Shown piece after piece: positions 30,601 to 63,987 of a stretch of DNA of 64,000 nucleotides. Each line of letters begins with the position of its first letter. The first letter of the stretch is position 1. Where the stretch lies: IMG/VR virus record IMGVR_UViG_3300025608_000006, one strand, 5' to 3'. Origin of the DNA: a virus. Taxonomy: Duplodnaviria > Caudoviricetes. Position numbers and translations under genes: made by a program. Below the pieces are notes generated by a model, which saw only the letters and a list, made by a program, of their open reading frames with translations, was not told the origin of the DNA and searched no databases.

Positions 30601-33600
30601 CACCAACTGCACGATAAATTGCTATTTTGGTGTCTGTTGTACTATCTGTTTGTACTTGCTTAGTAGTTACAACTAATACTTGCGAATCTTCGCTTATGCT
30701 AAAACTTTTACTAAACTCGATTAAATTGTCAATCGGATCAAAGACTTCTTCATTATAAAATCTAGTGGATGTTAAGTTTGGCAAGTAACCTAAATAATCA
30801 ATATTTGTACTTATTGACTCCCATAAATCATTTGTATCGGAAGGCTCAGTGGCTCCTATTGATATGTTTGTTAGTGCTTTCCAAAGTTTATTGTTTCTTG
30901 AAACAATACTACCCAATCTGTAAGAATATGTATTATCAAATTCACCACGATAATTAGAATCTTTTCCGTGTTTCCAACTAATTTTATCCCAATAAATCGG
31001 ATCTAGTATAACATTTTGTGCGTTGCTAGTTGCTTTGCGGCAAATATAGTAATCATCCCTATATATTACAATGTCGCCGATTTGATAAGAGGTTAATTTA
31101 TATTCGCCTTTAAAGCTATCTGTAGACTTAGTACCATGACGGAAAATTTCGATTGCACCAGGATGCGTTCTTCTAAGATTGTCCGGGCCTATATCAGCAA
31201 TACTGTCACTGCCTACTAATAACGTGTAATAGTTTCCTGTTTGTGTAATAGAAACTTTGGAGCCAAAATATCTATTCGGAGCTCTGTATTCAGAAACAAA
31301 TAGATTTTGGAATCTATAACTACCGTCAGGCAATTTTCTATAAATTGCAACAGCGCCTTCATTTGTTAGTGCAGGACTTGTTCCAAATTTATCAGCAGGA
31401 ATGTGATAAATTTGTGTATAGTCTTTATTTAAACTATACGGAGGATTAGATAGTCTCTGTATTCCAGATTCTGTAGTTTCGTCAAAGAACCAGTATTCTT
31501 CATCAAGTATACTCGGATTATCAACTATATTAAAATCACTAGTGTTTTCAAATACTAGTAATTTTCCAACTATTTGATTTCCTAATATAATATTATTGTT
31601 TATATCTGATACTGTTCCAATTGTACGATCAACATCAGTTACGCCGCGCAGTGCAGTATTTGCTGTTCTACGTATTTGATAGCGACCAATATTAGATTGT
31701 TCTAGCCATTCTCCTGTTAGCACTTTTAGGTAAACTCTAACACTGTTAAAATTACGTTTTAAAAACACTACTTCGGCACTACTTGTAGTAATTGTAGTTA
31801 ATGCTAGGCCACCTTGACCGTCACGCGGTGTTTGCACATCTTCAATTACATCTCCAACTTGTGGCTCAAATGCAAATCCTGAGAAATCAAATTCAGTTAA
31901 GTCGAAATCAATATAACCGTCCCAAATATCAACAATTGTTTGTTGCTTGTTTAAGATATCATATGAAAATCCTGCAGATGCAACGTCGATAATTCTATTG
32001 TCAAGATTATATAGTCTAAATTCTGTTGTGTCGCCGATTGTCGAAGTATCACTAAATGTTTTTCCTACTCTAGCTACCCATTTATTACTAAGAATATTTC
32101 GTTCAACTCCATCCTGTCCGTCAAAACCAGACGGATCACCCCTGTATGATAGTTGTTCAATATAACTTGCACGATTTTTTTCAGTTACAAATGTTCCAAT
32201 AGTACCAACGGTGTTTTGGATATTATAGTATGGATTTAATTCGCGTGATGATCCTTGTAGCTTAACATCTGCATATACTAGACCCCTGCCTGTATCATAA
32301 TAGACACCGTTATTGGAGTAAGAAAAACTTGTATTAATAAACCAAAATCCGCCGACTGCATCTGTTGTACTATACGTATCTTCTTCTGTATAAAAGCCTA
32401 CGAAATCCAGTTCATTAATGAACAATTCTCCTGTAACATCAAATACACCATTTGTATCTTTAACATAAATTACAGCACTGTCTCGACGAGTTCCAACATA
32501 TGCAACTTCTGCACTTCCTGTGTCTGTTGTTACAATAGATCCTACTAGGGGTAAAGATATAAATGTTTCGACAAAGAATACGTGATCAATTTTTTCAACA
32601 ATTACATGGTCTTGGGACAAATAATCTGCAAATACGTTTTGAGGCGTATCTAATAACCCATCAAAAGGAATATAGTTGTCTAATGTAGGATAAGTGTAAC
32701 TACGTCTATTCCAAAAAAGATTAATTGTATCTCCAGCTGAAGTGCCAAGATACATATCTTTAGGAGCACGAACTAGCAAGTGGTTAACAGTGTTGTTTTC
32801 TAGCCCAGGATCGCCGGCAACTAGTAGATTTAACGTTGTACTATCTGCATCAGCAGAACTTGCAATATTTACATAAGTGTCAAATGTACTAAAAGGCTGA
32901 CTAGCAATTTCTGGTAGTACTTCTCTATTAACTTTCCATAAGCTCTCTCTATAACGTACAATGTCGTTTTTAATATAAGTTGCGTCTGGCTGGAAGTCGA
33001 ACGTACTTTCATTAGTTACTGCATCAGTTTTATATGCTAATCGAGTATTAACATCACTAGCTTGCGGAATTCCTACAACCAAGTATTCTCCGTCAGGTGA
33101 TACAGCAATACTTTTTCCAAAGTCGCTATCATTTCGAGTGAATAAATCATCATTATCTATAACAATTTCTTGATCTAACAATAAGTTTGACTGCTCACGT
33201 GTTCTTCTATAAACAGACACTTTGCCGTTAGCGTCGTTTGGTGCGGATACAAAAACATTGTTATTGTTTTTTGTTATTGCAACACTATCACTAAACCCTT
33301 GATCTGTACTGTCGTACTCTGATGGATTTACTATTGCTTGCGAATTTAAATAAACTGAATTATTTTCTAATACAGCCCATTCGGTTTTATACGTATCTAC
33401 CCACAGTCTTTGTTTATTATATAAATCCTGATTTATTGCGTTGTTGATTTCTGATAAATCATCAACTCGGATAGTTCTAAGTGTCGATGCCGTAAACTTT
33501 TCATCTTCAAAATTTGAGATGTCATTGTCTAATGGAACTCTTATACGGACTGTATTTAAATTAATACTATCGATTTCATATAACCCATTTACTGAATACT

Positions 33601-36600
33601 GAGCTGCTCCACGAATTCCAAGATAATCGTTAACAGAAAATAATTCATTTGCCCATTTGTCTAATGTTAATTCTACTAATCGCAAACCGTTTTCTGCTAT
33701 TTCAGTTATATCAGAATCTAAACTTAGCACATTTACATTTGGATTAATTAATTGCATAACTGTCCAATTTTTATTGTCTGTATCAGTTATCCAAATTGTA
33801 TCACCTAAGCTGATTTGATTAGTGTCAACTGCTGCTAGATCAGTCAAACTTCCTACAATAAAATCAACATCGTTTTCGTTTGTATACCCAGATGTTCTAA
33901 TATATTCACTGGCTATGGTTTTAGTAGGTAACGGTGCGTGATCATAATCTGCAGGTTTGTCAAATACTTCGTTTGGTAAAATTCTGTAGATCTTATCAAA
34001 GTTAGTTGCAGGCAATGTGCTTACAAGCTCAACTGCTTGAGGTGACTCTTGCATTTTGTCTTGTTGTAAGTTGTACTCAACCTGCTGCACATCATCAACT
34101 GCGCCATAACGTCCAACTTGAATTGCCCATTCTTCATAAAACTCTAAGTTATCAGCAGTATTGCCAAGTGCATCAAACAATTTAGTAAACACATTCATTG
34201 TGCCTTTGTCTGCAATTGCACCTCTGTAGAATTTAAACTGGCTTACATCATCATTAATAATGTTAGAAAGGTACTGACGCTTTTGATAGCCTATCAAGTT
34301 TTGTGCAGCACGTTGCTGGTCAATATCAAAGCTGTCTGAATCTAAATCATAGAAATCTGTAAATTGTGTAACTCTATAATCAAAGTTAGTCATTAATTGT
34401 GATTCAGGCTTTTCACTAAGTCTATACCACAGATTATTATTAAATGTTTGTGAACCAGATACATTAGAAGTTGCTACATAATAATATTGTTTGTATTTTA
34501 CAATATCTCCAATAATATAATCTTTCCATTGTGTCCAGTCTGTAAATTTTGCATCGTCATACACAAACCCAGGAATGTTAAGGCCGCCGTTCCAGTTGTC
34601 TGATCTATATCCGTTAACACGTATTCTATCTTGTCTATATCCAGTTGCTGGATTATATATTGTATCGTTAAAATCAGTTGTGTTGTCTATTAGTACAACA
34701 TGCTCTTTTTGTACCAAAGGTAACGATACATGATATAGTCCTTCTTCGGTTCCGACTGTTTCTATTCCAAAACTGTTTTGATCTCGTAGTACACTATTAA
34801 ATTCTGAATCTAAAAATAATCCATCGGCTTTAAAAATATTATATCCGTAGAAATCATCTTTAATGTTGTCTACAATGTAATAATCTTTGTTAAATTCTAT
34901 TAAATTTGAAGCAGGACTTAACGAAATAAGAGATTTTTCTGCCCATCCTTGTGTTGTCCAGAATAAAAACTCTTTTGCACTTTGGCTCCAGTTTTCAACT
35001 GTATTGGACCCATCAATTACATTTTCAAACCTAAATCCAATTTCTTGTTGTCTTAAACTATAACCTAATAAAAAGTCAACTACTTCTTGGGCTGAATTAA
35101 GTTTACTTCCGTATTGCAATCGGTCAAGTTTTGTAGTTTTAAAGTTTTTCTTAAATTCTGCTGTTCTGCCACCTGTTAAAGGAAGTTGTGGCAACTTAAT
35201 AATATTGTTAGTATCAAATGTGTTGCTGCTAGTAAAAGAGTCAATAACTCGATAATAAGAATTATTATGTAGTATTACTTCTCCACTTATAAAAGAAGTA
35301 TTAGGATTCCAAGAAACAGTTTTCTCTGATATTCCGCCTACAGTTACAACTGATTTTGACGATCCTTGTTGCGGACTGTAATACTCAAAGTAAGGCTTTT
35401 CTAAATTGTAACCTCGTAACACATATCCTATTTCAGCTCTTTCTACAATTACCCCACTATAAATTGCCAACTCAGAAGGGCTGCTGGTATTTAAAAATAC
35501 TTGATAATTTTCTTGAGGTACAAATATACCGTCTTGTGTAAGATTTTGTGTCGGAGATCTGCTATCTAATATTAAATTAAATTTTTCTTTGCTAGTAAAT
35601 CCTGCAATTTTAATTCCAATCTGATTGGTTATTGAAGCAAGGTCATCTGCATAATCTTGATACACTGTAAGTATATCACTAGCTACTAAGTTATAGATAT
35701 AATTTACCAAACCAGAAGTCATAGTTCTAGTTTCTGATTGAATAGTGTTCGGTAGTTTTAAATCTTTAATAACAATCGGCTTGTTTGTTTCAATGTCTGT
35801 CCATTGATTTGTTAAATTTTTAGAAATTCTAGAAATATCAAACCCTAAACTCATTGTTTTTGCAGGTTTATTTAATAATAGTGCTGCTAGTACAGAAAAC
35901 GGATATTCAGCGCTTCGACGCCACGCATTTTCAACAGGTGAATAATCGCCAAATTTAAAGTTATTGGTTGCATTTCTTATGTTAAAGTTTTCAGCAATGC
36001 CGATATCTAATGGCGATAATAGTTTACCATTACTATTAACAGGAATAAAACTAGTTAACCCGGGACGAGAATACTTTAGATCAATACGTGTATTTTTAGG
36101 GTCTGAAATACGACCTTCTTCTAGATCCTTCCATAAAACTAAATTATCTCCTGTATAAGGAGCAGGCCCGTATACTTCATTCCACCAATCAGGCTTAGAT
36201 GTTAATCCTAGCATTTCCCAAGGGTGACTGTGAGGCCTATCAGTATCAAATAATCTTACAAAAACGCCCCGCCAAAAACCTGGATTGGCATTGTTGTTGG
36301 GTGACGACGTAGATGAATAATTAAAAGTCCAATTATTATTTCTATTATAAAAAGTATTTTCAGTATAAGTTTGATTATTTAGGTTATTTTGTAACCACTT
36401 ATGAAATTCACTTAATAGTGTGTTATCAATTTCTGTTTTTGTAAATTCATTGGTTCTAAAATCGCCGCCAATAAACTCGTTAATGTCTAATCTATCAGTT
36501 GAATATTCTGCTTTAATGTTATTGAATATTCTTTTTTCAAACTCTAATAATAATTCATCTCTAAAGTCTTTATATGCTCTAATATAACTGCCATCGTGAC

Positions 36601-39600
36601 CTCTAATAAATGCAACTCCAATTGGGTACTCGGTAATTTCAATATTATCGTTTCCAGCAATAGTTGCATCTAATGTAGGTATATAAAATAGCTTGTTCAT
36701 TCCTACAAAGGAATAAGATTTAGACAAGTTAGCCAAACCTGCTGCACTTTTAGTTGTATAAACAGGGTAAAACCACCCTCTTTTTCCAGTTGACTCGTCT
36801 TCTCCGTAAATTTTGAAAGGACCAGAAGAAACTGGTTCTTCTGCAAGTACAGTATCGTCAATTGTTAACTCGGGATAATACTTTGGGTATAGACCTAATT
36901 TTGTGGGAGTCGGAGGAATAAAACTACCGTCAGAATTTTCATATTCGAATATTTCAATTAAGTCATTTTCAGTTTGGCCTGCATCGATTGAAATATAACC
37001 AGGTATATCAAAATTATAATCTTTATTGTAAGTTAGCTGGACATTGTTTAAGTAAACTATTACACTTTTAACACTCAATTTACTTAAATTAAAATTAGTA
37101 CTTAACGGGTAATCTGTTACTCTAGAATCTAAAACAGTGTATTCAATCTTGTTAGATGATCCAAAAGGAATCATATCAGAAAAGTAAAATGGTTGAGATT
37201 TTAGTTTTCCTGCATTAATTTCTTTTAAAATTTTGTCAACGTGCTCTTTAGTAAGACCATCAAATCCTAGTGTTGTTGCAACATCAATAAACGTCTTTTT
37301 AAATCTTGAATATTCTTTTTTAGAATACTGCAAAGCTTTAATAATATTATAATTTTTATTAGTTATATGATACAGCGGCAAATTGATCGGACCACTATGT
37401 TTGACAAACCTCTTACCGTAACGATCTAAATCTCCTAAATCACGGAGGTTACTAGATCCTAAATATGTGCCTGTATATCCGGGCACATCTTCTAGCATAC
37501 TATCAACATGATCGATTACTTCGCCTAAAGTAAATTGATTAACGTCATCATTTAATGGATTGCGTTCTAAATTATAAGGAAATTCATAATATCCATTATT
37601 ATTTTTAATACTGTTTGAAGTTGTTTTAATTTTAATAATATCGTCGGCTATCAAATCTTTTACAAACTTAATAATTGCATTTGAAGAAGATTTATCAATT
37701 ATATAATCATCATCAAGTAATTGTAACTTATGATTAACGTAAACAACAGTTTTTAAATCACTAATACTGCTTGAATTTTCATAGACGTCGATTTCAAAAT
37801 CGTTAGTCTGCACAGTAGTAGCAGCATATTCTCTTATAACTTTTTGTTTGCTAATAGTTGGAGTTCGACTAAAGCCATTTTCATAAGTAAAATTAGTAAG
37901 AGAAGTATATTTTTTCAAATATCCGCTGTCTATTTTTTGAGTTAATAGTTCAGTATCTGTTTGATATGTAAAAGTATCGTTTAATAAATTAAAATCAAAC
38001 GTAATATCGCCTGAATTATCAATTGACTTATAACTTAAAGGAAATCCTAATTCAGTATCATCGATGCCATCGCCTTGTGCATATGAAAACAGCTTAGTGC
38101 CTTTAAACGTCGACGACCCGTAGTATGTTTCGTCATTGAAACTATTACCATTTACATCACATACATCAAACATAGGCGACTGGTTAGTTTCTGTTTTTTC
38201 TTGAGCAGCAAGCCATTGACCTTTATGATAATGATAACTTTTGCCTGCGTTTTTTACACCTTGTGTAACTAATACAGTTTCAAGATCAATTGGCATAGTA
38301 TCTTCAGTTTCAATTAAACTAATTTGTCTATTATTTCCAATATTAATAAATTTAACTTGATAAATTTTTCCGTTTACTAAAATATCTGTATCTGCTGTAA
38401 ACAAAATGCGCATATTTTCTGCTAGATTAATGCCATCGATATTATAACCAATTTTTCCTTCGATAGTAGAAAATACATCAGTTGTAAACGTATCAATTAA
38501 GTCAATGTCTTTTTTAGCAATTGCACCAAAATTCTCTAGTTTTAATCCTGCTTCAAATTCGATGATAGGACGTTTAGCACGAGCCAATTCGTCAACATTT
38601 CTAGGCAAATTATTAAATTCAAAACTTTTTAAAATTACATCTTTATGATGCCATCTATTGTAACGACTCCATGCATTTCTATCAGGCGTTGCACGGTTGA
38701 TAACAACATAGTCTTTTTCAGTAGCATAAGAGCTAGCATCAGAAAACGGTAATGTATCAAAGTTATCAGAGTCAAACGCTATCTGTTTGTTATCACTGTA
38801 TGCTGCTGGAATTATTAAATCTAAGTCTCGTATTAACTTAATTTTGTCGCCGACGCCTTCAACATACCAATCACTATTTGCATAAATTTCCGGAGTTACA
38901 TCGCCTTGAAACTTAATTTTCATACCGTTAGACAGGCTAACATTATTAGAACTTGTATATGTCTTTTTACCTAAAATTTCTTCTTCAACATTTAAGAATG
39001 TGTTTTCTTCAACATCGTAAATTCTAATTTGGCCACTAGTATCAACTGCATTTTTACTAATGTAATACAATTTGTCAGGAGCATTGACTGGTATTGTGAA
39101 TTCTATAGTACCTTTTTCAATATAAGCAATAGCAACTTCTTCGCCTTCTTCACCTAATTTACGTATGCCATCAGGATAAAGTGTAGATACGTTTTCGTCA
39201 TCTTCAAATGTTACGCTACCTCCACTAGGAAGTATAATAAAATCTCCTTGGTCGTATTCATTACCATATAGTGATGCACCAAATAGACCGTCGCCTCGCA
39301 ACCCTTCTGTGCCTGCTGTTAATATAGCAGTGCCAGGTGTAAATGTTCTACTAATTGCAATAGCCATTGGATGTCCGGGAGCATCAATTTCAAAACGGTA
39401 TGTTTGTCCTCGATATAGTTTTAAATTAGGATTTCGTGTTAGTCCATCATTAAACACATAAGAAATATTATCGCCCTGATCTTCAGTAGTAACTGTGTAC
39501 GTACTTACTATTTCTCTGCTTTGACCTTGTACAGAAATACTAATTGGGCCGTTTGGTAGCCAATAATATTCACGGAAGTTTACAAATTTATCCCAATCAA

Positions 39601-40009
39601 TATTTGGGTTCCATGCATATGTTTCTTGACTGTTTAAACGACTGTGATTTTCTACATTAGCTCCGAATACATTCAGTTGCCCAATATAATCGTTGTAATC
39701 TTTATAAAAAGTTACATTGTCATATAAATCTTTAATAACTGTTGCAGGTTCTAATTGATAGTTAGTTCTATTATTGGTGACATCATCAACGTAATTGTCC
39801 GCAGCCTTAAATGACTTAGCAGTTTTCCTACCGTAATACCCGTTAATTTTTTCGGCAACGCCTGGTTGTATTAATTGATCTAATGTGCCTTGTAAAAACT
39901 TTTTGTTAGCTTGTGTTCTAAAAAACTTAGGTAAAAAATCACTTGCCGTGATTTTATTATTTTGTCCTGGAACTGGAAGTGCGCTTTCGTTTTGATCATT
40001 TTTAGCCAT
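24644..40009 (-). CDS. Giant (5121 aa) multidomain baseplate wedge-like virion protein
   Basis: Uninterrupted 15.4-kb ORF directly downstream of the gp6-like gene (the gp7 position); cupredoxin-like, CBM5/12-like, FG-GAP-like propeller, GSGY-type and (F/T)GDG repeats are visible. Confidence 0.8.
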   Translation of the reverse strand: MAKNDQNESALPVPGQNNKITASDFLPKFFRTQANKKFLQGTLDQLIQPGVAEKINGYYGRKTAKSFKAADNYVDDVTNNRTNYQLEPATVIKDLYDNVTFYKDYNDYIGQLNVFGANVENHSRLNSQETYAWNPNIDWDKFVNFREYYWLPNGPISISVQGQSREIVSTYTVTTEDQGDNISYVFNDGLTRNPNLKLYRGQTYRFEIDAPGHPMAIAISRTFTPGTAILTAGTEGLRGDGLFGASLYGNEYDQGDFIILPSGGSVTFEDDENVSTLYPDGIRKLGEEGEEVAIAYIEKGTIEFTIPVNAPDKLYYISKNAVDTSGQIRIYDVEENTFLNVEEEILGKKTYTSSNNVSLSNGMKIKFQGDVTPEIYANSDWYVEGVGDKIKLIRDLDLIIPAAYSDNKQIAFDSDNFDTLPFSDASSYATEKDYVVINRATPDRNAWSRYNRWHHKDVILKSFEFNNLPRNVDELARAKRPIIEFEAGLKLENFGAIAKKDIDLIDTFTTDVFSTIEGKIGYNIDGINLAENMRILFTADTDILVNGKIYQVKFINIGNNRQISLIETEDTMPIDLETVLVTQGVKNAGKSYHYHKGQWLAAQEKTETNQSPMFDVCDVNGNSFNDETYYGSSTFKGTKLFSYAQGDGIDDTELGFPLSYKSIDNSGDITFDFNLLNDTFTYQTDTELLTQKIDSGYLKKYTSLTNFTYENGFSRTPTISKQKVIREYAATTVQTNDFEIDVYENSSSISDLKTVVYVNHKLQLLDDDYIIDKSSSNAIIKFVKDLIADDIIKIKTTSNSIKNNNGYYEFPYNLERNPLNDDVNQFTLGEVIDHVDSMLEDVPGYTGTYLGSSNLRDLGDLDRYGKRFVKHSGPINLPLYHITNKNYNIIKALQYSKKEYSRFKKTFIDVATTLGFDGLTKEHVDKILKEINAGKLKSQPFYFSDMIPFGSSNKIEYTVLDSRVTDYPLSTNFNLSKLSVKSVIVYLNNVQLTYNKDYNFDIPGYISIDAGQTENDLIEIFEYENSDGSFIPPTPTKLGLYPKYYPELTIDDTVLAEEPVSSGPFKIYGEDESTGKRGWFYPVYTTKSAAGLANLSKSYSFVGMNKLFYIPTLDATIAGNDNIEITEYPIGVAFIRGHDGSYIRAYKDFRDELLLEFEKRIFNNIKAEYSTDRLDINEFIGGDFRTNEFTKTEIDNTLLSEFHKWLQNNLNNQTYTENTFYNRNNNWTFNYSSTSSPNNNANPGFWRGVFVRLFDTDRPHSHPWEMLGLTSKPDWWNEVYGPAPYTGDNLVLWKDLEEGRISDPKNTRIDLKYSRPGLTSFIPVNSNGKLLSPLDIGIAENFNIRNATNNFKFGDYSPVENAWRRSAEYPFSVLAALLLNKPAKTMSLGFDISRISKNLTNQWTDIETNKPIVIKDLKLPNTIQSETRTMTSGLVNYIYNLVASDILTVYQDYADDLASITNQIGIKIAGFTSKEKFNLILDSRSPTQNLTQDGIFVPQENYQVFLNTSSPSELAIYSGVIVERAEIGYVLRGYNLEKPYFEYYSPQQGSSKSVVTVGGISEKTVSWNPNTSFISGEVILHNNSYYRVIDSFTSSNTFDTNNIIKLPQLPLTGGRTAEFKKNFKTTKLDRLQYGSKLNSAQEVVDFLLGYSLRQQEIGFRFENVIDGSNTVENWSQSAKEFLFWTTQGWAEKSLISLSPASNLIEFNKDYYIVDNIKDDFYGYNIFKADGLFLDSEFNSVLRDQNSFGIETVGTEEGLYHVSLPLVQKEHVVLIDNTTDFNDTIYNPATGYRQDRIRVNGYRSDNWNGGLNIPGFVYDDAKFTDWTQWKDYIIGDIVKYKQYYYVATSNVSGSQTFNNNLWYRLSEKPESQLMTNFDYRVTQFTDFYDLDSDSFDIDQQRAAQNLIGYQKRQYLSNIINDDVSQFKFYRGAIADKGTMNVFTKLFDALGNTADNLEFYEEWAIQVGRYGAVDDVQQVEYNLQQDKMQESPQAVELVSTLPATNFDKIYRILPNEVFDKPADYDHAPLPTKTIASEYIRTSGYTNENDVDFIVGSLTDLAAVDTNQISLGDTIWITDTDNKNWTVMQLINPNVNVLSLDSDITEIAENGLRLVELTLDKWANELFSVNDYLGIRGAAQYSVNGLYEIDSINLNTVRIRVPLDNDISNFEDEKFTASTLRTIRVDDLSEINNAINQDLYNKQRLWVDTYKTEWAVLENNSVYLNSQAIVNPSEYDSTDQGFSDSVAITKNNNNVFVSAPNDANGKVSVYRRTREQSNLLLDQEIVIDNDDLFTRNDSDFGKSIAVSPDGEYLVVGIPQASDVNTRLAYKTDAVTNESTFDFQPDATYIKNDIVRYRESLWKVNREVLPEIASQPFSTFDTYVNIASSADADSTTLNLLVAGDPGLENNTVNHLLVRAPKDMYLGTSAGDTINLFWNRRSYTYPTLDNYIPFDGLLDTPQNVFADYLSQDHVIVEKIDHVFFVETFISLPLVGSIVTTDTGSAEVAYVGTRRDSAVIYVKDTNGVFDVTGELFINELDFVGFYTEEDTYSTTDAVGGFWFINTSFSYSNNGVYYDTGRGLVYADVKLQGSSRELNPYYNIQNTVGTIGTFVTEKNRASYIEQLSYRGDPSGFDGQDGVERNILSNKWVARVGKTFSDTSTIGDTTEFRLYNLDNRIIDVASAGFSYDILNKQQTIVDIWDGYIDFDLTEFDFSGFAFEPQVGDVIEDVQTPRDGQGGLALTTITTSSAEVVFLKRNFNSVRVYLKVLTGEWLEQSNIGRYQIRRTANTALRGVTDVDRTIGTVSDINNNIILGNQIVGKLLVFENTSDFNIVDNPSILDEEYWFFDETTESGIQRLSNPPYSLNKDYTQIYHIPADKFGTSPALTNEGAVAIYRKLPDGSYRFQNLFVSEYRAPNRYFGSKVSITQTGNYYTLLVGSDSIADIGPDNLRRTHPGAIEIFRHGTKSTDSFKGEYKLTSYQIGDIVIYRDDYYICRKATSNAQNVILDPIYWDKISWKHGKDSNYRGEFDNTYSYRLGSIVSRNNKLWKALTNISIGATEPSDTNDLWESISTNIDYLGYLPNLTSTRFYNEEVFDPIDNLIEFSKSFSISEDSQVLVVTTKQVQTDSTTDTKIAIYRAVGDQFQIDQIISAPDNVTGWADKVAINPAGTQIAISSMLVDTNKINQGVVYVYTQTDGVFVLTQTLTPPNNEESEGFGFGLDFGADNLVVSSLNGDQTIPTTFDVAVYADTEETATTFDNEFTNFRNIKLDKGVVYVYETVNENLIYSEQFVYPLTQTTFGENVYANGNHVYIGMPDQVSNENKGTLLDFRKNANTFAWNVISEGITPVDVDNIRGAFLYNKRENKLVSYIDYIDPVQGKIAGPADQEITFKTSFDPAVYNTGNTSDSSVDPNRAWTDKHTGQVWWNIGTAKFTHAYQGSTTFQKNNWNKLVPGSRIDVYEWVESNYIPSIWDSIADTPSGIVSKISGTSLFGDTRYSTKIIYDEVSKTFSNKYYFWVVNKVTVPVMENRRLSIRDIAALIENPRTQGYPFLSLLSNNKFVLNNFDTFVDNDDLVLNIKYSTGPKKTQNVHSQYKLISDGLKTSKPDPDIERKWFDSLIGFDDNNRIVPDPTITVKNRYGVQNRPRQSMFVNRFEALKQTIERINLKLLETLVVDEYDISALTQLDAAPTEISREYDLTIDTFSELAFVSTNKIVPAILTPVVINGRISRINITDPGRGYKVAPSFKVNGTGSNVDFDIEINNLGQIIDVQLTNTGEGYNSNTTITVRPFTVLVNADETIQDKWALYSWDGKEWYRRKLQSYNVESYWRYTDWFADGYNQFTNINDIIQGSYELPSLQNNIGDIVKIETVGSGGWLLLQKIDDQDSEDYTINYDVIGRQNGTIQFNDTLYDYGKNTVGFDNRSFDSNFYDNTPSIEIRIILETIRDNIFVGDLETEYNQLFIAALRYVMAEQQSVDWMFKTSFVKATHNRESLSKQDITFNNDNLQSYQDFVEEFKPYSTKIREFVSEYNAIDPTNSSISDFDLSPVYNKTSKTIEASNAKIVNGEIVDENLDTTTYPRKHWKDNIGYQITEIKIGDGGSGFTFEPIITLVGGGGTGATAKAYLGYGSITSIKITNPGTGYTTAPTVVISGSQLETGTPARATAVLGNGLVRSPLVKIKFDRTSGTFTFDTLAKTETFTGTGFENRFFLEWPMDLSNTKIKVYVDNILQLRSKYTYENIENTDKSYAREQGKVLFTTPPKLNSVIRIEYVIPLSMLSAEDRIKFAYTPIAGMYGNDLAQLMSGVDYGGVEVRSFDFSSPSGFDSQPWYTDNWDEFDDTFEDEVFTADGSTIAVQLSEPLEDGVVYNLYKNGVRIDDPNYDEGTPTNVYAITNSITGDGTTDVVYVQDLGISLLDGDVFVVRKTTSDGSVIPDLESYDTALTGGDLAYTSARGIAAEEIIVDGDGFVTPTTSSGPEEVVPGQILDTLDIKVYTRDSEGQGVINSQSYIMDSTLTYDLGVIPNSSNAVIVKVADVILPQTDYTIDWSANTVTLDSATVGAELNIVTVSQGTQNLLDFGKLLGDGSTTEFETTVDWEDGASVYASINGVQQTVAAFASETTPKTVIRFEEVVADGAVINYTVFSADEQVNYSQITKDTFTGDGVTNEFNLSNAPLYAIPSEHNVLVKVDNLILNAGYNVKYTIPQNSQREYPFEIFQMPQGSLDVQDVKVFLNGSELSTPLDWRFEIANSNITLSDDIGSPGDTLEMYVITDGDYRINGSTITLDDVPADNSTIEIIQFTNHNLLGIERINYDVVSRTTLIPEDVDYITYNRLTVGEITLRSPAIDAQYVWVAVNGELLSPSVDYYITDDKLKLQLVRRPDADAVIDVIHFTSAASKPKFAYRQFKDMLNRTHFKRLEKSTAKLAQALNYYDLRIELDNAFNLSEPNKSRNLPGVIFIEGERIEYFVKEENTLRQLRRGTLGTGVKDTYDVNTDVFDQNIGKTVPYKDQTLVSNTTADGLTTTFEVSYPVSSINEIEVFVAGTRMRKTPLDVFDYTAALDSPEGDTTIVADFTFDADTNEITLATAPAQDTRVTVVKKVGRAWTDDGVSLSDSENSIARFLRAGTSALPE

Positions 40010-57250: not shown

Positions 57251-59532
57251 TGAAACGCACACTAATTACTGAATCGTGGAATGATCCTCGTCTTACACTT
57301 CTCGAGACAACAACTATTATCCCGTTTGTATCTAGTATTGAAAAATATATTACTGAAGCACAACTTACACCAGATCAAATCAGTCAACTATTTACTGATG
57401 TAGAAAAGGGTGCTACTGCTGCCGGCGGCAATAGAACTATGATCGGCAAAGGCACAGACGCTGCTAAGTTTATCAATACAAAAATGAAAGAGCTTGGTCA
57501 AGCTGTTAAAAAGTCTGGACCTGTTCAAAACGCAGATGCTAAATTTGCAGAACTAAAAACTAAAATAGGTTCTAAAGATTCTAAAGTTGTTAGTGCAATA
57601 CAAGGTGTTAGTGATTGGGCAAAAGAAAATCCTGGCAAAGCAAGTATTGCTGTTGCCGTACTAACTGTTGCTGCGTCGATGGCTGCCGGACCAATGGCAG
57701 GCGCTATTGCAGGTTTTATATCTCGAGCAAGTAAAGATTTACTACAAGGCAAAGACCTTTCTAGTGCAGTTGGTAATTCACTTAAAACAGCAGCAGTCGG
57801 TGCTATTGTCGGTGCAATTGCAGATGGTATTGACTTTGGTACTCCGGATGTTGAAGGTGGTGTTAACACAGTATCAGGAGATGTGGATACTAGTCAACTA
57901 CAAGATAAACTTGCAAAAGAGCTAGGCGACAATGCTAGCGATGCAAATCAATCTGTTGCAAGTGCATTTGCAGATATGGATGTATCACAATTTAAGATGA
58001 AGTATGCTGAAGAAATGTATTTGGCTCAACTTGAAAAGTTTGGCGGTGAAGCAAGTCGTAGCATGATGATGAAGATGGCCGAAAACATTGACATTCAAGG
58101 TACATATCCAGATGATTTTACTGCTAGTTTTGAAGGAAGTTTTGTTAGAGGGAATATTTTCTTAACGCCAGATGAAGCTAGAGAACTTAGTGCTGCTGGA
58201 TTTGAAGGCATGGACATAATGGGCAGTGAAGCAACAGAATGGATTAAAGCAAATGTTGAAGGCGCAGACGAACAAATTCAAGCAGGAATTGATGCAAGTG
58301 CGCGAGCAGACGCAGAACTAAAAGCAAAATACGATGCAATGAGTGCCGAAGAGCAACGTGCATTTGACCAAGAGAGAGCTGCAAAATATGGCGACTTTAT
58401 GGATGTCGAACCTCCGGGAACTCCTAAGTACAAAGAAAGTATCGATTTTAAAAATATTCAAATTGAAACTATTATTGAATGGTGTGACCAATCTCCTGCT
58501 GTTATACTAACAGAAGGCCCGATGGATGCAATTAAAAAAGGTGCAAGTGCTGTAGGCGGAGCAGTTAAGAAAGGTGCAGCAGCCGTAGGCGCTAAAGCAG
58601 CAAAGGTTGGCAAGAATATGACAACTAAAGTTACTGCTGACAAATTAAATAAAGCCTGGGTCAAAGCTGGAAAGCCTACTGACAGTGATAAAATTGCAAA
58701 CATTCTTAGACAGCAAGGTGTAAGTGATCAAGTACTAGCACCTGTATACAAACAAATGGGTGCAAAGCTTCCTGCTGCTCCTGCAAAAGATACACAAGCA
58801 AGTAAGCCAGGATCAACAGATAAACCACAAGCAGGTAAGCCAGGTGCAACAGGCGGACAGGCAGCTGGCGCAGCAGCGCCGATGGACTTTAAAGCTATTC
58901 AACAAGCTGTAGCTAAAATGAGTTCACAGGATGCAAAAGAATTAGTTACGCATATTGACTCGCTCAGCGGCAAAAAAGCAGCAGCACAGCCTCAAACAGC
59001 CCCTGCACAAGGTGCAACTACACAACAGCAACCTGCACAAGGACAACAGCCTGCACAAGGACAACAGCCTGCACAAGGACAACAGCCTGCACAAGGACAA
59101 CAGCCTGCACAAGGTGCAGCGCCTGGTAAACAGCAACCTGCTGCACAGAATCCTAAAAATGCCGCAGCTGGTGATACTTATGAAAAAGCAAAAGGTGATA
59201 TTCGTAAAGTACAAAGTGGACAAAAGCCTATTCCACCTAAAGCCGCAGCAGACATTCAGGGTGCAATTGCTAAACTAGCTAAGGGTGATAAAGAAAGTGG
59301 AGTATTTGCTGCACAGAAAATTATGAATCTTGCTAAAGCAGGAGTTGATGTCAGCAAACAACAGCAAGCATGGGTTGCTAATTCTAAAGCAGCTGAACGG
59401 TTCTTAACACAGAGTGTTTACTTTGCAATTACTAAAATGTTGCGTGAGCATAATTTGTCTTGGAGTAATTTAGGTATAAGAGTGCATTTGTTAGAAGGTA
59501 CTAACAAAATGTTTGGAATAAGTTACATTTAA
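57250..59532 (+). CDS. 760-aa putative head-internal/ejection protein with hydrophobic helical segment and QQPAQG repeats
   Basis: ITE, LLE, ITE, LTE, LRE and LLE motifs; hydrophobic ASIAVAVLTVAASMAAGPMAGAIAGF; Gln/Pro/Ala repeat. Confidence 0.6.
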   Translation: MKRTLITESWNDPRLTLLETTTIIPFVSSIEKYITEAQLTPDQISQLFTDVEKGATAAGGNRTMIGKGTDAAKFINTKMKELGQAVKKSGPVQNADAKFAELKTKIGSKDSKVVSAIQGVSDWAKENPGKASIAVAVLTVAASMAAGPMAGAIAGFISRASKDLLQGKDLSSAVGNSLKTAAVGAIVGAIADGIDFGTPDVEGGVNTVSGDVDTSQLQDKLAKELGDNASDANQSVASAFADMDVSQFKMKYAEEMYLAQLEKFGGEASRSMMMKMAENIDIQGTYPDDFTASFEGSFVRGNIFLTPDEARELSAAGFEGMDIMGSEATEWIKANVEGADEQIQAGIDASARADAELKAKYDAMSAEEQRAFDQERAAKYGDFMDVEPPGTPKYKESIDFKNIQIETIIEWCDQSPAVILTEGPMDAIKKGASAVGGAVKKGAAAVGAKAAKVGKNMTTKVTADKLNKAWVKAGKPTDSDKIANILRQQGVSDQVLAPVYKQMGAKLPAAPAKDTQASKPGSTDKPQAGKPGATGGQAAGAAAPMDFKAIQQAVAKMSSQDAKELVTHIDSLSGKKAAAQPQTAPAQGATTQQQPAQGQQPAQGQQPAQGQQPAQGQQPAQGAAPGKQQPAAQNPKNAAAGDTYEKAKGDIRKVQSGQKPIPPKAAADIQGAIAKLAKGDKESGVFAAQKIMNLAKAGVDVSKQQQAWVANSKAAERFLTQSVYFAITKMLREHNLSWSNLGIRVHLLEGTNKMFGISYI
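59023..59114 (+). repeat. Coding 18-bp tandem repeat (GGACAACAGCCTGCACAA) x4 plus one degenerate copy
   Basis: Perfect units at 59041, 59059, 59077 and 59095, encoding GQQPAQ. Confidence 0.95.
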
Positions 59533-59735
59533 AAGAATGGAAGACCACTTTTCTTAGTGGTCTCTAAGTTTTCTTTTACTATATCACCGATAAGCATTCT
59601 ATCTTCGTGAGATAGGTTATAACCTTCGTCTATAGTAACACCGCCACGCATATACCAACAAAGTTTTAAGATTTCACTCTTAATTTCCTTTTGTTCGTTT
59701 TCCATATGCTTAACTTCTTCTAGGATCTCAGCCAC
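59529..59735 (-). CDS. gp51-like tail/baseplate assembly chaperone domain, probably made as a -1 frameshift extension of 59753-60634
   Basis: EILKLCWYMRGGVTIDEGYNLSHEDR resembles gp51/GT-type C-terminal domains; no properly spaced SD; the frame is open upstream to the slippery site. Confidence 0.7.
   Translation of the reverse strand: MAEILEEVKHMENEQKEIKSEILKLCWYMRGGVTIDEGYNLSHEDRMLIGDIVKENLETTKKSGLPFF
59542..59563. terminator. Possible bidirectional hairpin at the convergent gene junction
   Basis: AGACCACT-tttctt-AGTGGTCT, 8-bp perfect stem with T-rich runs nearby on both strands; lies inside a CDS end. Confidence 0.3.
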
Positions 59736-59765
59736 GCTCCAAGCTAAGATCCTTATCCGAAAAAA
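59722..59765 (-). promoter_or_regulatory. -1 programmed ribosomal frameshift signal
   Basis: T TTT TTC (59765-59759), 5-nt spacer GGATA, stem AGGATCTTAGC (59753-59743) / GCTGAGATCCT (59732-59722), 10-nt loop. Confidence 0.82.
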
Positions 59766-60634
59766 TTTGACTGATCAAATGTAATTGCAACTTCGTAACT
59801 TTCAGGTGCTCCGGCTGCAATATCTTCTTCAGATGAAGTAACTTTTAGAGGTTCTAGTGCAAATAAATCTTTTTGTGATTCGATATGTTTTAGTACTTCG
59901 TTATAAAATTCTTTATCTGCGTTTTCAATAAATTCTTTTATATGTAGTGGATTTTCAACTACAGTATCACCGATAGAAATACTAACAACACTAGCTGATA
60001 AAGAACTTATAGTTAAGTTTGTAAGTGTTTGAAAGCTTTCATTAAACTTTGCTAATTTTTCTTGATCTGGAATTTTTTCATCGTTAACAAGTGCAAATAT
60101 ACGTTGTTCTTCAAAAGTTTTTAAGCTTGCATCAGTAAATTCTTTGTATGTCATTGGTCTAGTAACTATAGACATATCGTTGATTACAAATTTATCATTA
60201 TAGTCTTTTGTTACTAGTTTATTCAATAACTGTCGAAGATCGACAGCAAAAGATCTATCTTCTCCAGTATTTGGAACTTTTGTAGTAACATCCATTGTGT
60301 CACCATATGTTGCAACACGAATTGCAATTAATATCGCATCTAAATCAATGCTTGGCATGTGCCACGGATTTTTAATATTTGGAACACAACTTTTAATAAT
60401 TTCAACTGTGGCTGCACCGTTTAAAAGCGCATCAGGAGTTTTCATTGTTAGCTCGTCTTTAGCTGTCATTGCAAATACTGGAAATTCTTTATTTTCAGGA
60501 ATATCAATAGATCCCTCTGGATAAAATTTTCCCTTGCTAGGAAGAGTAATATAGACTTTAGGTTGTCTAAAATACTTTTTCAAAGGGTTTTGTTCAATAT
60601 TACTATTAAACTTTGTTGGATCAAATTCTGGCAT
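59753..60634 (-). CDS. Baseplate hub assembly/tail chaperone protein, T4 gp26-like
   Basis: NPLKKYFRQPKVYITLPSKG.FY...PVFAMTAKDEL..KTPDALLNG.A..EIIKSC..IDLDAILIAIR.ATYG. Confidence 0.72.
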   Translation of the reverse strand: MPEFDPTKFNSNIEQNPLKKYFRQPKVYITLPSKGKFYPEGSIDIPENKEFPVFAMTAKDELTMKTPDALLNGAATVEIIKSCVPNIKNPWHMPSIDLDAILIAIRVATYGDTMDVTTKVPNTGEDRSFAVDLRQLLNKLVTKDYNDKFVINDMSIVTRPMTYKEFTDASLKTFEEQRIFALVNDEKIPDQEKLAKFNESFQTLTNLTISSLSASVVSISIGDTVVENPLHIKEFIENADKEFYNEVLKHIESQKDLFALEPLKVTSSEEDIAAGAPESYEVAITFDQSNFFG

Positions 60635-60711: not shown

Positions 60712-63700
60712 GTGGCTGAAGAAGTACAAATTAGTAATGTTGGTGGCGATGGAGTAGCTAGTGAAGTTACTCTACAACGTCTCGTAACTAGTATTGAAGC
60801 AATGGCTAAAAAGTCAGGCATTGACTCAAAAAGCCAAGCTGCAAAATTACAAAAGTTATACAACCAAGAAGTTGATAAATCTAGCAAAGCTACAAAAGAT
60901 CAAACAGCAGAAACACAAAAACAGACTACTGCAACCAAAGATGCAACTCAAGAAACAAATAAGCTTGCCCGCAGTCTTGGAGCAGCAGCAGGCAAAGGTC
61001 TAGGTGCGCTATTCCAGTCTACTGTTGGGTTAACTAAAGCATTTTACAATAATAATACAAGTGTTGAAGCGTTTGCTTCACAATTGCCAGTATTTGGCAA
61101 AACTTTAGGATTCTTAGGCGGTATAGCCGATGAGTCGATTGATGCATTTAGAGGTCTGTCAGCAAGCGGTGCATCGTTTGGTGGCTCGATAACTAATATG
61201 CGAAATGCAGCAGCAGGAATGCAAATTAGTTTAAGTGAAATGACACAGTTGTTTGCTAGCCAAGCACCTGCACTAGCAGCATTAGGCGGAACAGTTGAGC
61301 AAGGCGCACAACGCTTTGCCAAAATGAACAAAAACATTAAAGCTACAGGCGACTTTGACAGTCTTATGCGTATGGGCTTTGCTGTTGAAGATATTAACGA
61401 AGGCATGGGAGATTACATTGCACTTCAGGCAAGAATGGGCACACTGCAAGGCAGAAGTACAGCAGAATTAGCAGCTGGCAGTGCAAACTATCTAAAACAA
61501 ATTGACTTACTTGCAAAAGTTACTGGCAAGACAAGAGAAGAAGCTAAGGCTGCACTAGATGCACAAGCTGCTGACTCGGTGGCACGTACATTATTAAATC
61601 AATTTGATCGAAATACAGAAGAAGGGCAGAAAAAGTTTGATAATCTAACCACCAGTTTAGCATTACTAGATGAAGTAGGCGGAAGTACTGCTGAAGCATT
61701 AAAAGGAATGCTTACAGGTAACCCAACTAAAGCAGCTGGTGAATTGTTAGCTGTACTAGGTGATGCAGGCACTCCCGTTTTAGAAGCAATGGAAGCTATC
61801 GGCGATGGCGCAGATCCTCAGGTACTATTAAATGCATTTAGAATGGCCGGCGGAGAATTAGAAAACTTTGCAGGAGCAGATGCAGATAGCCGTGCAAGAA
61901 TAATACAAGAACTTAAAGATCAAGGTAATCCATTAGGTGACTTCTTAGATAACGCTACTGTAATGATGGATCTATCAGAACGTGATCTAGGTGCTGCTGC
62001 AAGATCACAGGCTGCTGCTGCCGAGGCAAGAGATGCAGCAACTGATGCGATGTTAACTTTTGAAAATCAACAAAGAGAACTAAGTGGAAAAATGCACGAA
62101 ATATTCATTCAATCGGGTGTATTGGATGCAATTGGCGCAGGATTAACTGTATTTGGCGATATTCTTTCTGGAATAACTGGCTACCTAACAACTTTCTCAG
62201 AAAATGTTGCAACCGGCGGCTGGTTCTCTGCAATTACTACTGTTCTAATGGATGGGCTTGGTGCTCTTTGGGATAATGCCGGAGTTGTTGGTGCATTAGT
62301 TGCAGGTATTGGCGTATTGTTTGCAAGTAAAGCAGCAGCTGGCGCACTTACTAGAAGCATCGGTTCGAAAATTAGCGGCATGTTTGGCGGCGGCGAATCC
62401 GCCGGCGGGAAAACTGGCGGCGGCAAAACTGGCGGCGGCCTCGGAAAAGGAATAGGTAATATAGGTAAAGGTCTTGGCAAAGGACTGGGCGGAGTACTAA
62501 AAGGTATTGCTAGTGGACTTATTTTCTTTGCAAATCCATTAGTTCCATTAGGAGCAGCAGCAGTAGGAGCAGCAATAACAGCAATCGGCGCAGGTATAGC
62601 CGGTGCAACATGGTTAATAGGTAACTCATTGCCTTCTTTGAAAGACGGATTAAAAGGCTTTGAAGAATTAAACGGGGATGCATTAATATCTGCTGGTAAG
62701 GGCATGGGCGCTGTTGCACTAGGCATGGGAGCATTTGGTGCAGGGTCAGCAGTTGCAGGTCTAGGATCATTAGTAGGAAGCGTTACATCGGGCATTGCAG
62801 GATTGTTTGGCGGCGAAACAGATCCACTGGCACAACTTGAAAAATTCCAAGAAAAGTCATTTGACGAAGCTACGATTACAGCTAATGCTAATTCAATAGT
62901 TGCATATAGTAAAGCAATGGCTGCATTAGGAGCAGCAGAAGGATTATCAGGCATTGGAGCAGCAGTTGGAGCAGTAGGCGGAGCAATAGCAGGATTGTTT
63001 GGCGGTGATGATCCGTTAACAAAAATGAAGCAATTCGAAGCGTACACGTTTGATTCAGCAAAAATTAAATCTAATGCTGAAGCAGTAAGTGCATATGCAA
63101 GTGCAATGAAAGATTTTCCGACTAGCCCAGCTCCAAGTATTTTTGGTTCGTTTGCAACTGGTGTAGCAACGCTGTTTGGAGCAGAAACAGATCCGTTTGC
63201 TCCAATGATGAGATTTGGAGATCTAACATTTAATACTGCTGGTATTATTGCAAACGCAGGAGCAGTTGCAGCATATGCAACAGCAATGAAAGATTTTCCT
63301 GCAACTCCTAGTGCTAGTGTGTTTACTGCATTAAAAGATGGCGTCATTGGATTACTGGGAGGCGAAACAGATCCGTTTGCTCCGATGATGAGATTTGGAA
63401 ACTTAAAATTTAATTCAGAAGGCATTGCTACTAATGCAGGAGCAGTAAGTGCATTTGCAGACGCAATGGCTAATATGCCAACTATAGATGCTGAACGTTC
63501 AGGTGGCGTACTAGGTGCAATTGCAGGATGGTTTGCTGGTGACGAAGTAATGCCGTGGGATTCTGTAAAAGCATTTGGCGATGCTAATATAAGTGCAGAA
63601 GGTGTAACAGCTAATGCTGCGGCAATTAATGCTATGACATCATCTTTAAATGGTTTTAGTGTAGAAAAACTTGACACAACTGGAATTGTAAGCTATACTA

Positions 63701-63987
63701 GTGCTATGGAAAGATTGGTAGAAGTTCTCGGCGAGTTGAACGATGAACTTGCAGCAGACAATAAAGCAGGCCTCGGCACAGGTACTAATGCAGGTGATGT
63801 AGTTAGCAAAATGGATACAATCGGCTCTGGAGGCGGAGCAGGCAGTGATCAGTTAAATAACATTATGAATCAAGTATTACTAGTGCTAAACGAAATGCGA
63901 GATTTGGATATTGATGTTGAACGAAATACAAGAAACATAATCGGAAGTAATCTTGCACAAGGCGGCGTAAGCAATGTCGCAAGATGA
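60712..63987 (+). CDS. Tail tape measure protein-like
   Basis: 1091 aa, Ala/Gly-rich and helical with periodic aromatic residues and hydrophobic segments; adjacent to the chaperone pair. Confidence 0.78.
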   Translation: MAEEVQISNVGGDGVASEVTLQRLVTSIEAMAKKSGIDSKSQAAKLQKLYNQEVDKSSKATKDQTAETQKQTTATKDATQETNKLARSLGAAAGKGLGALFQSTVGLTKAFYNNNTSVEAFASQLPVFGKTLGFLGGIADESIDAFRGLSASGASFGGSITNMRNAAAGMQISLSEMTQLFASQAPALAALGGTVEQGAQRFAKMNKNIKATGDFDSLMRMGFAVEDINEGMGDYIALQARMGTLQGRSTAELAAGSANYLKQIDLLAKVTGKTREEAKAALDAQAADSVARTLLNQFDRNTEEGQKKFDNLTTSLALLDEVGGSTAEALKGMLTGNPTKAAGELLAVLGDAGTPVLEAMEAIGDGADPQVLLNAFRMAGGELENFAGADADSRARIIQELKDQGNPLGDFLDNATVMMDLSERDLGAAARSQAAAAEARDAATDAMLTFENQQRELSGKMHEIFIQSGVLDAIGAGLTVFGDILSGITGYLTTFSENVATGGWFSAITTVLMDGLGALWDNAGVVGALVAGIGVLFASKAAAGALTRSIGSKISGMFGGGESAGGKTGGGKTGGGLGKGIGNIGKGLGKGLGGVLKGIASGLIFFANPLVPLGAAAVGAAITAIGAGIAGATWLIGNSLPSLKDGLKGFEELNGDALISAGKGMGAVALGMGAFGAGSAVAGLGSLVGSVTSGIAGLFGGETDPLAQLEKFQEKSFDEATITANANSIVAYSKAMAALGAAEGLSGIGAAVGAVGGAIAGLFGGDDPLTKMKQFEAYTFDSAKIKSNAEAVSAYASAMKDFPTSPAPSIFGSFATGVATLFGAETDPFAPMMRFGDLTFNTAGIIANAGAVAAYATAMKDFPATPSASVFTALKDGVIGLLGGETDPFAPMMRFGNLKFNSEGIATNAGAVSAFADAMANMPTIDAERSGGVLGAIAGWFAGDEVMPWDSVKAFGDANISAEGVTANAAAINAMTSSLNGFSVEKLDTTGIVSYTSAMERLVEVLGELNDELAADNKAGLGTGTNAGDVVSKMDTIGSGGGAGSDQLNNIMNQVLLVLNEMRDLDIDVERNTRNIIGSNLAQGGVSNVAR
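62790..63640 (+). repeat. About five ~60-aa internal repeats in the tape measure protein
   Basis: LFGG(E/D)TDP..M.+F...F....I..NA.AV.AYA.AM; the DNA gaaacagatccgtttgctcc-atgatgagatttgga occurs at about 63184 and 63364 (180 bp apart). Confidence 0.85.

Follow-up and report, generated by a model that had tools for sequence, protein, structure and literature searches.

We analysed the 3' end of a gene of the T4 gp26/gp51 baseplate-hub assembly chaperone family, carried by a 64,000-nucleotide (nt) stretch of caudoviral DNA (IMG/VR record IMGVR_UViG_3300025608_000006; Duplodnaviria, Caudoviricetes) hereafter called the window. This stretch was found in marine metagenomes, and by tblastn it falls among jumbo myoviruses of the Atu_ph07, Phosso, PBECO4/121Q, PA5oct and XaC1 type, at ~30% identity. 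Comparison of the gene (59753-60634) with its relatives indicates that it is very probably decoded in two ways, a -1 ribosomal frameshift close to its stop codon adding a C-terminal extension to part of the product.

Two reading frames at the end of a hub chaperone gene

The 293-amino-acid (aa) product of the zero-frame open reading frame (ORF) matched PF12322 (T4_baseplate) with E = 5.3e-10 and 39.8 bits, above the Pfam gathering cut-off of 24.5, and phrog_150 (baseplate hub) with E = 2.6e-13, so that the 'gp26-like' label given by the initial annotation holds. A family search of the window returned one PF12322 member and one copy of the extension. The -1 product itself matched no family in Pfam or PHROG.

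On the minus strand, the ORF (60634..59753) ends with TCA AAT TTT TTC GGA TAA. The heptamer T_TTT_TTC (59765..59759) lies in the zero-frame register (codons AAT TTT TTC), and a single sense codon (GGA) separates the slip site from the stop. Beyond the spacer, the two arms of a hairpin pair as RNA into AGGAUCUUAGC / GCUGAGAUCCU, i.e. 11 base pairs (bp) including one G-U pair. Translated in the -1 frame from 59765, the sequence reads FFRIRILAWSVAEILEEV... and stays open over 78 codons, the two Phe codons counted in, until the stop at 59531-59529; the predicted fusion thus comprises 292 + 76 = 368 aa. Two start candidates occur in the -1 ORF of the window, GTG at codon 10 (59735) and ATG at codon 20 (59705). 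The former (59735-59733), from which the listed 68-aa ORF begins, is located in the hairpin loop, and no Shine-Dalgarno sequence was seen for it in the window sequence. The arrangement described by the initial annotation, i.e. the end of the ORF, the heptamer, a 5-nt spacer, an 11-bp stem with a 10-nt loop, and a GTG without usable Shine-Dalgarno sequence buried at the stem-loop, was recovered in full on the minus strand, and translation confirmed its open -1 frame in frame with 59529-59735. Its fusion of ~367 aa stands as an arrangement, with the length corrected as above. All features are listed in Table 1.

Table 1 Position of the predicted frameshift elements and of the divergent neighbouring gene in the window
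Feature	Position	Strand	Remark
Zero-frame ORF, short form, 293 aa	59753..60634	-	Member of the T4 gp26/gp51 baseplate-hub assembly chaperone family
Slippery heptamer U_UUU_UUC	59759..59765	-	X_XXY_YYZ register; both tRNA-Phe able to re-pair in the -1 frame
Spacer GGATA, 5 nt	59758-59754	-	Heptamer to hairpin
Candidate stimulatory hairpin, 11-12 bp, 8-10 nt loop	59722..59753	-	Begins 5 nt past the heptamer
Hairpin 5' arm AGGATCTTAGC	59753-59743	-	
Hairpin loop, 10 nt	59742-59733	-	
Hairpin 3' arm GCTGAGATCCT	59732-59722	-	
-1 frame reading, FF + 76 aa + stop	59529..59765	-	Predicted C-terminal extension of the long form, by translation
1091-aa Gly/Ala-rich protein, tape-measure candidate	60712..63987	+	Divergent from the frameshift gene

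Constraint on the slip site, the extension and the hairpin

The 3' end of the homologous gene was examined in six GenBank phages and 44 IMG/VR loci. Forty-eight loci had this end on the contig, i.e. those of 6 cultured jumbo phages (Atu_ph07, Phosso, PBECO4, PA5oct, XaC1 and Vibrio phage 2.275.O) and of 42 IMG/VR contigs, and all of them (48/48) keep the gene end xxT TTT TTC at protein identities down to ~30%. The heptamer is followed by 1-11 sense codons and then a stop, with a -1 frame open over 72-97 codons. Codon choice was compared over the 25 non-redundant loci. The two Phe codons of the heptamer are TTT in 25/25 and then TTC in 25/25, and the codon on their 5' side ends in T in 25/25 while encoding N, H, Y, S, T or D. 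Taken together, these synonymous choices have a probability of ~1e-26, a figure computed from each gene's own codon usage and taking the loci as independent, which is generous, if reasonable, at such divergence. As controls, two other conserved Phe columns split between TTT and TTC (15/8 and 17/6), and all other near-invariant columns of 2- to 6-fold degeneracy show mixed codons. Because the heptamer is invariant in every locus while other conserved Phe codons mix TTT and TTC, its conservation goes beyond chance; conservation in homologs had been put forward by the initial annotation as a check on the signal, and the heptamer is conserved where internal synonymous controls vary. The Arg codon that follows in the -1 frame was found as CGG (7), CGA (7), CGC (5) and CGT (5), and this free wobble at CGN reads as a property of the -1 frame, not of the zero frame.

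Heptamers of the type H_HH.U_UU.Y rank among the most efficient -1 motifs in E. coli, and U_UU.U_UU.C, the sequence present in the window, is used by some insertion sequence (IS) elements and shifts at >0.1% even without a stimulator (PMC4066793). Separately, we observed that in marine run X3 the summed contig depth (at least 90% match) reached 176-309 at window positions 59708-59795, vs ~23 elsewhere in the gene; many related strains appear to share this segment, which covers the slip site and the hairpin, nearly unchanged.

The same long protein would arise if RNA polymerase added one U within the U6 run and the transcript were translated in the standard way. The homopolymer is a site at which transcriptional slippage could take place, and both its outcome and the conservation of the run would look alike in genome comparisons. 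We nevertheless consider slippage improbable, since the run is always six T then C (48/48), shorter than the known bacterial and phage slippage sites, whose runs count ~8-9 or more (PMC5009743), and since features tied to the register (the preceding wobble T, TTC as second Phe codon, the hairpin at 5 nt) are those predicted by a ribosomal shift. Marine RNA-library contigs cover parts of both ORFs, not the slip site, and rare indels do not show in contigs.

A stop codon interrupts the -1 frame 0-3 codons ahead of the heptamer in 20/25 non-redundant loci, so that there the frame cannot be entered from further upstream. No conserved start codon was found in the -1 ORF across these 25 loci. The PA5oct extension (NC_071039; L005:3334-3558, plus strand), unannotated in the deposited record, contains 0 ATG, GTG or TTG in 75 codons, and at five other loci (L017, L020, L024, L025, L049) the first such codon stands at codon 31 or later. 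The residues ahead of any start are nonetheless conserved as FFRxRILxxS..I (20 aligned relatives), and the entropy of codons 3-21 in the -1 frame (1.20/0.82/1.65 for positions 1/2/3) bears a coding signature. The -1 ORF thus appears to be conserved as a protein from the slip site onwards, with no conserved start of its own.

These data also bear on the possibility that the downstream ORF is an independent small gene, expressed from GTG 59735, from ATG 59705 or by termination-reinitiation, next to a heptamer that would be incidental. Depositors did annotate small separate ORFs, called hypothetical proteins, in Atu_ph07, Phosso, PBECO4, XaC1 and Vibrio phage 2.275.O, but the start that they chose varies from record to record. 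Such a gene is very improbable: its start position is not conserved and may be missing altogether (PA5oct) or lie past the conserved FFRxRIL... residues, whose coding pattern precedes any start; the GTG of the window sits in a hairpin loop without Shine-Dalgarno sequence; synonymous sites of the heptamer are constrained; and in-frame fusions, described below, place the same domain on the C-terminus of a hub chaperone.

Turning to the hairpin, RNAfold added a 12th pair to the stem of the window and returned -19.2 kcal/mol (z = -3.3 vs dinucleotide shuffles), making it the most stable 50-nt segment among 155 control segments of the same gene. Over 25 loci, the stability of the segment following the heptamer had a mean percentile of 0.19 and fell at or below 0.05 in 8/25. 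The 5' arm AGGAUCUUA is kept at the 5-nt spacing in many relatives, with a 3' arm lying ~10 nt or ~35 nt away, and at locus L010 a double change, G-C to U-A, leaves the stem of the window intact while two amino acids change. A search of window positions 59300-60000 against Rfam gave no match. We read this pattern as selection for some stem at 5-nt spacing, i.e. for a stimulator that would be helpful and not indispensable.

Heptamer and hairpin might alternatively be kept for mRNA stability, for a folding pause or for termination control, the -1 ORF being made by other means. The overlap of the hairpin with the stop codon, the high nucleotide conservation and the depth peak at ~59708-59795 would fit such a role, but it leaves unexplained why the X_XXY_YYZ register is exact, why the -1 frame opens shortly ahead of the site, why CGN wobbles freely in that frame and why in-frame fusions exist, and we hold it to be highly unlikely.

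The predicted extension was further considered as a protein. In jumbo-phage relatives, the PF12322 match reaches profile position 219, at the FF of the slip site. The structure of the extension was taken from a natural in-frame homolog (P0118). Its AlphaFold2 (AF2) model (predicted local distance difference test, pLDDT, 90.8; predicted template modelling score, pTM, 0.85) shows the extension (residues 266-341) as four helices, the first of which spans the junction, and in the AF2 model of the window short form (pLDDT 86.3) the chain stops within the initial turn of this junction helix. Foldseek searches with both models against the PDB and AlphaFold database (AFDB) Swiss-Prot sets gave no match at E <= 0.001, and a PDB sequence search found nothing. 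Entries matched in a viral model library were solely named 'baseplate hub assembly protein, T4-like', and a shape search of the ESM Atlas matched solely the family itself.

In-frame counterparts and the relation to T4 gp26 and gp51

When 1.84 billion representative proteins were searched with a profile of the extension, 499 matched at E <= 0.001. Among the best 150 of them, 20 are proteins of 319-351 aa that carry the extension domain in frame at their C-terminus. At the junction they read xFRxxIL, a single Phe taking the place of the pair, which is exactly what a 2-T deletion in the T run would produce. The N-domains of these fusions, which have a CxxC...CxxC zinc ribbon, cluster apart as a divergent group, by which the idea that the in-frame fusions are themselves assembly errors was ruled out. 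Conversely, the notion that the split gene results from a 1-nt error introduced during sequencing or assembly, or from a recently acquired frameshift mutation, the true gene being in frame, scarcely deserves credence, given that, error-prone as homopolymer runs are and despite in-frame versions in other phages, the same frame arrangement occurs in 48/48 independent assemblies, including six cultured and independently sequenced phages, DNA contigs from two further marine runs span the site without indel, and the in-frame genes make up a divergent clade of their own, each accompanied by a short paralog upstream.

At the five in-frame loci examined (L058-L062), which belong to uncultured jumbo phages, the long gene is immediately preceded by another, short PF12322 gene (276-319 aa) in 5/5. 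These short paralogs lack the extension, and 4/5 end just past the conserved FF or F, as the short form of the window does. The long gene of each tandem pair bears the same extension as the window (E = 1e-20 to 1e-32), fused in frame to the zinc-ribbon N-domain, and unlike the window gene it needs no frameshift. One tandem-pair locus lies on a 327-kilobase (kb) contig and shares the synteny of PBECO4 and PA5oct (portal, ~780-aa structural gene, hub chaperone). In a six-frame Pfam search, PF12322 genes numbered two in T4 and one in every cultured frameshift phage whose whole genome was searched (Atu_ph07, PBECO4, PA5oct and Vibrio phage 2.275.O). Judging from these genomes, a phage would carry a single gene where that gene has the heptamer, and a short plus a long gene otherwise.

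As a side observation, the N-domain of the window protein (59753-60634) does not have the second CxxC zinc knuckle before FF and reads ...AAGAPESYEV...; this Cys pair is kept in the other frameshift-type members compared (L002, L006, L044) and in all in-frame long paralogs.

Two of the short paralogs (L058:820-1704 and L060:411-1295, both on the plus strand) have T_TTT_TTC in register near their stop, with a -1 frame that closes after one codon, and this heptamer looks like a relic of a former frameshift site. Because these short genes keep it, we suggest that the ancestors of these jumbo phages had the frameshift and that the gene pair later took its place. In a maximum likelihood tree, the short genes of L058-L060 are nested in the frameshift clade beside the group of the window (97/88), and the long genes form one weakly supported group (83/53). 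T4 gp26 and gp51 group as sisters (100/99) and stand outside all the jumbo-phage sequences (100/99), from which it follows that the T4 pair is the product of a separate duplication. The backbone of this tree is unresolved and long branches meet, so that the direction of evolution is not given by it.

T4 gp26 (208 aa) and gp51 (249 aa) both match PF12322 over their full length and are therefore paralogs of one fold, gp51 having ~48 additional C-terminal residues. In a large protein collection, gp51 relatives combine PF12322 with PF28602 and gp26 relatives have PF12322 alone. Both proteins are listed as 'hub assembly chaperone', gp51 being absent from the particle (Leiman et al. 2010, PMC3004832). 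As in the window, T4 has a short and a long version of one fold: gp26 (gene 26, L051:7803-8429, minus strand) ends with ...KEFFELL, its stop standing 3 residues after FF, and the window short form stops 1 residue past FF. Unlike the window, T4 encodes the two forms in separate, divergently transcribed genes with no frameshift, and the FF of gene 26 is coded TTC TTT, which is not slippery. The T4 record also contains gp26', a 95-aa product from an internal start; the nested products of T4 gene 26 share their C-terminus and are the mirror image of a frameshift pair.

The tail of gp51 (PF28602) may correspond to the frameshift extension, with which it is colinear at moderate similarity. Pairwise BLASTP of the extension against gp51 or gp26 gave nothing usable. 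Profile comparison by HHalign aligned the extension with the gp51 tail profile (62%, E = 7e-5, 66 colinear columns; reversed-profile control 0.5%), from the F before the junction to the C-terminus, through the motifs F(F/K)..LL..(P/s)(D/E)E(I/V) and ...(L/M).(S/P).E(R)..., and a full-length profile aligned with gp51 over the N-domain alone (88%), not into the tail. Because of the profile match, the shared N-domain and the identical position, we regard homology between the extension and the gp51 tail as quite probable. The 'gp51-like' label of the initial annotation thereby receives moderate support, from the profile comparison and not from pairwise alignment.

Proposed decoding and the lambda G/GT analogy

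The signal, its conservation, the in-frame homologs and the complementarity of gene counts are computational findings. From them we infer that the slip is ribosomal and that the hairpin stimulates it. Most ribosomes would read AAU UUU UUC GGA UAA and release the 293-aa short form. A fraction would pause with tRNA-Phe on UUU in the P site and on UUC in the A site, probably helped by the 11-12 bp hairpin, and both tRNAs would slip one base back to UUU UUU. Translation would then proceed in the -1 frame (CGG AUA AGG ...) for 76 codons, giving the 368-aa long form with its four-helix C-terminal extension. Both forms would be needed, as relatives without the frameshift encode a short and a long paralog, either as a tandem pair or as T4 genes 26 and 51, and, like lambda G/GT, the two forms may cooperate as chaperones while the hub or the tape measure is assembled. 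The central proposal of the initial annotation, a -1 frameshift that joins the gp26-like protein to the downstream ORF, is supported by five independent comparative lines, i.e. the invariance of the heptamer, the conservation of the -1 protein, the in-frame fusions, the gene counts and the enrichment in hairpins.

Programmed frameshifting in tail assembly chaperones (TACs) is a textbook feature of long-tailed phages. The frameshift that gives the lambda pair gpG/gpGT is conserved among such phages (Levin 1993; Xu, Hendrix and Duda 2004, as summarised in PMC5009743). As in the window, a -1 heptamer precedes the stop of a lambda morphogenesis gene by a few codons, and this gene adjoins the tape-measure gene (a tape-measure-like gene in the window). 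An abundant short and a rarer long form share their N-terminus in lambda, which is also what is predicted here, and gp51, the T4 homolog of the window protein, is needed for assembly and not found in virions. The two systems differ in other respects: the lambda G/GT family appears unrelated to the PF12322 protein of the window (~290 aa, no Pfam TAC match and no convincing match in fold), the lambda gene order is tube, G/GT, tape measure whereas the window gene is divergent from the tape-measure-like gene, and the heptamer is G_GGA_AAG in lambda and U_UUU_UUC in the window. Likewise, dnaX and the cassettes of the IS3/IS911 family share with the window a heptamer followed by a stem-loop at 5-7 nt; in contrast to them, no upstream Shine-Dalgarno-like stimulator was seen in the window, and the product is a virion-assembly protein.

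The neighbouring 1091-aa protein had no Pfam or PHROG match, and its homologs are likewise without Pfam family. By ESM-Atlas features, the nearest named clusters were those of the tape-measure families PF10145 (56/100) and PF20155 (36/100), with scores of 0.93-0.95. BLASTP similarities to T4 gp29 (E = 0.003 over 131 aa) and to the PBECO4 neighbour (E = 0.04) were weak. The exact protein was found on contigs of as much as 206 kb, and contigs bearing its relatives reach 380 kb; deposited records call the counterpart 'virion structural protein'. In PA5oct, whose tail measures 136 nm, the counterpart has 798 aa. The T4 tube measures roughly 100 nm, and on this value the tail length per residue of the PA5oct neighbour equals that of T4 gp29. 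The PA5oct RefSeq record attaches a virion mark from electrospray ionization tandem mass spectrometry (ESI-MS/MS) to the portal and to this neighbour, and none to the hub chaperone.

Wide structural searches were run with VIA-align. The long model gave mostly generic helical matches to the extension, together with weak rows for two TAC structures, 3klu (Z 5.0, root-mean-square deviation (rmsd) 3.6, 98 aligned) and 2ob9 (Z 4.4, rmsd 3.8, 79 aligned), which we counted neither for nor against a TAC fold. The short model gave helical-hairpin matches at Z < 8 and no chaperone.

Several points weigh against this interpretation or parts of it. The long form is a prediction from sequence in every member, and the GTG at codon 10 and ATG at codon 20 of the window would permit some independent initiation. 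No stem was found in 4/25 loci and the position of the 3' arm varies, and of stem covariation, a further check put forward by the initial annotation, one compensatory pair was seen (L010), beside the overall enrichment in stable stems. The HHalign link to gp51 was lower with earlier, narrower profiles of the extension (12%, then 52%) and rises with profile breadth. As regards the analogy with lambda, the gene has a 760-aa gene as its convergent neighbour and no tube gene beside it, no TAC family was matched in Pfam or PHROGs, nothing was retrieved by Foldseek from the PDB, and the probable identity of the 1091-aa neighbour as the unannotated tape measure of the jumbo group is a lead. Altogether, whether the short/long pair of the window works like G/GT is evenly balanced in our view, and membership of the window protein in the G/GT family is not supported. 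The equivalence of gp26/gp51-type proteins to G/GT, suggested by the initial annotation, accordingly keeps its short/long logic and its tape-measure-like neighbour, and lacks a family or fold link.

Besides the chaperone gene, other T4-type genes are present in the window, i.e. those of a gp55-like late sigma factor, gp46/47-like nucleases, a gp5-like hub/lysozyme and gp25- and gp6-like wedge proteins. The late sigma factor gene and then the gp47/gp46-like SbcD/SbcC nuclease genes occupy positions 52055-55754 (plus strand), followed at 55983-56432 (plus strand) by a 149-aa GIY-YIG homing-endonuclease-like ORF. The latter parallels a SegE-type GIY-YIG gene beside the hub chaperones of L062, and endonuclease VII genes in PBECO4 and XaC1. 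The baseplate/tail-fibre region contains one uninterrupted 5121-aa ORF (24644-40009, minus strand), adjoining the 1162-aa gp6-like wedge protein (phrog_10646, E = 9e-296).

Full-text literature searches on frameshift with baseplate hub, gp26/gp51 or jumbo-phage names returned no description of the site, and the word 'frameshift' is absent from the genome papers of this jumbo-phage group. The mechanism is of a known kind; what appears to be new is that it occurs in the gp26/gp51 family and that it connects genes 26 and 51 of T4.

We tentatively propose, rating it a little short of even, that hub and tape-measure assembly throughout the T4 superfamily requires a gp26/gp51-type protein in both a short and a long form, and that three interchangeable solutions serve this need: a -1 frameshift in a single gene (the window and jumbo phages of the RaK2/PBECO4/PA5oct/Atu_ph07 type), a tandem gene pair, or the duplicated genes 26 and 51 of T4. 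If true, gp26 and gp51, the short and the long version of one fold, would be the long-missing functional counterpart of lambda G/GT in T4-type myoviruses, with the 76-aa extension in the role of the T domain, and the family would provide a documented case of frameshifting and gene duplication substituting for each other in evolution. Recoding of one gene probably supplies both versions in a large group of jumbo phages, among them PA5oct and PBECO4, which are in culture and are candidates for therapy. The annotation of dozens of deposited genomes, in which the extension is missing (PA5oct) or given an arbitrary start, would be corrected accordingly, and the function of the two forms would become open to simple phage genetics.

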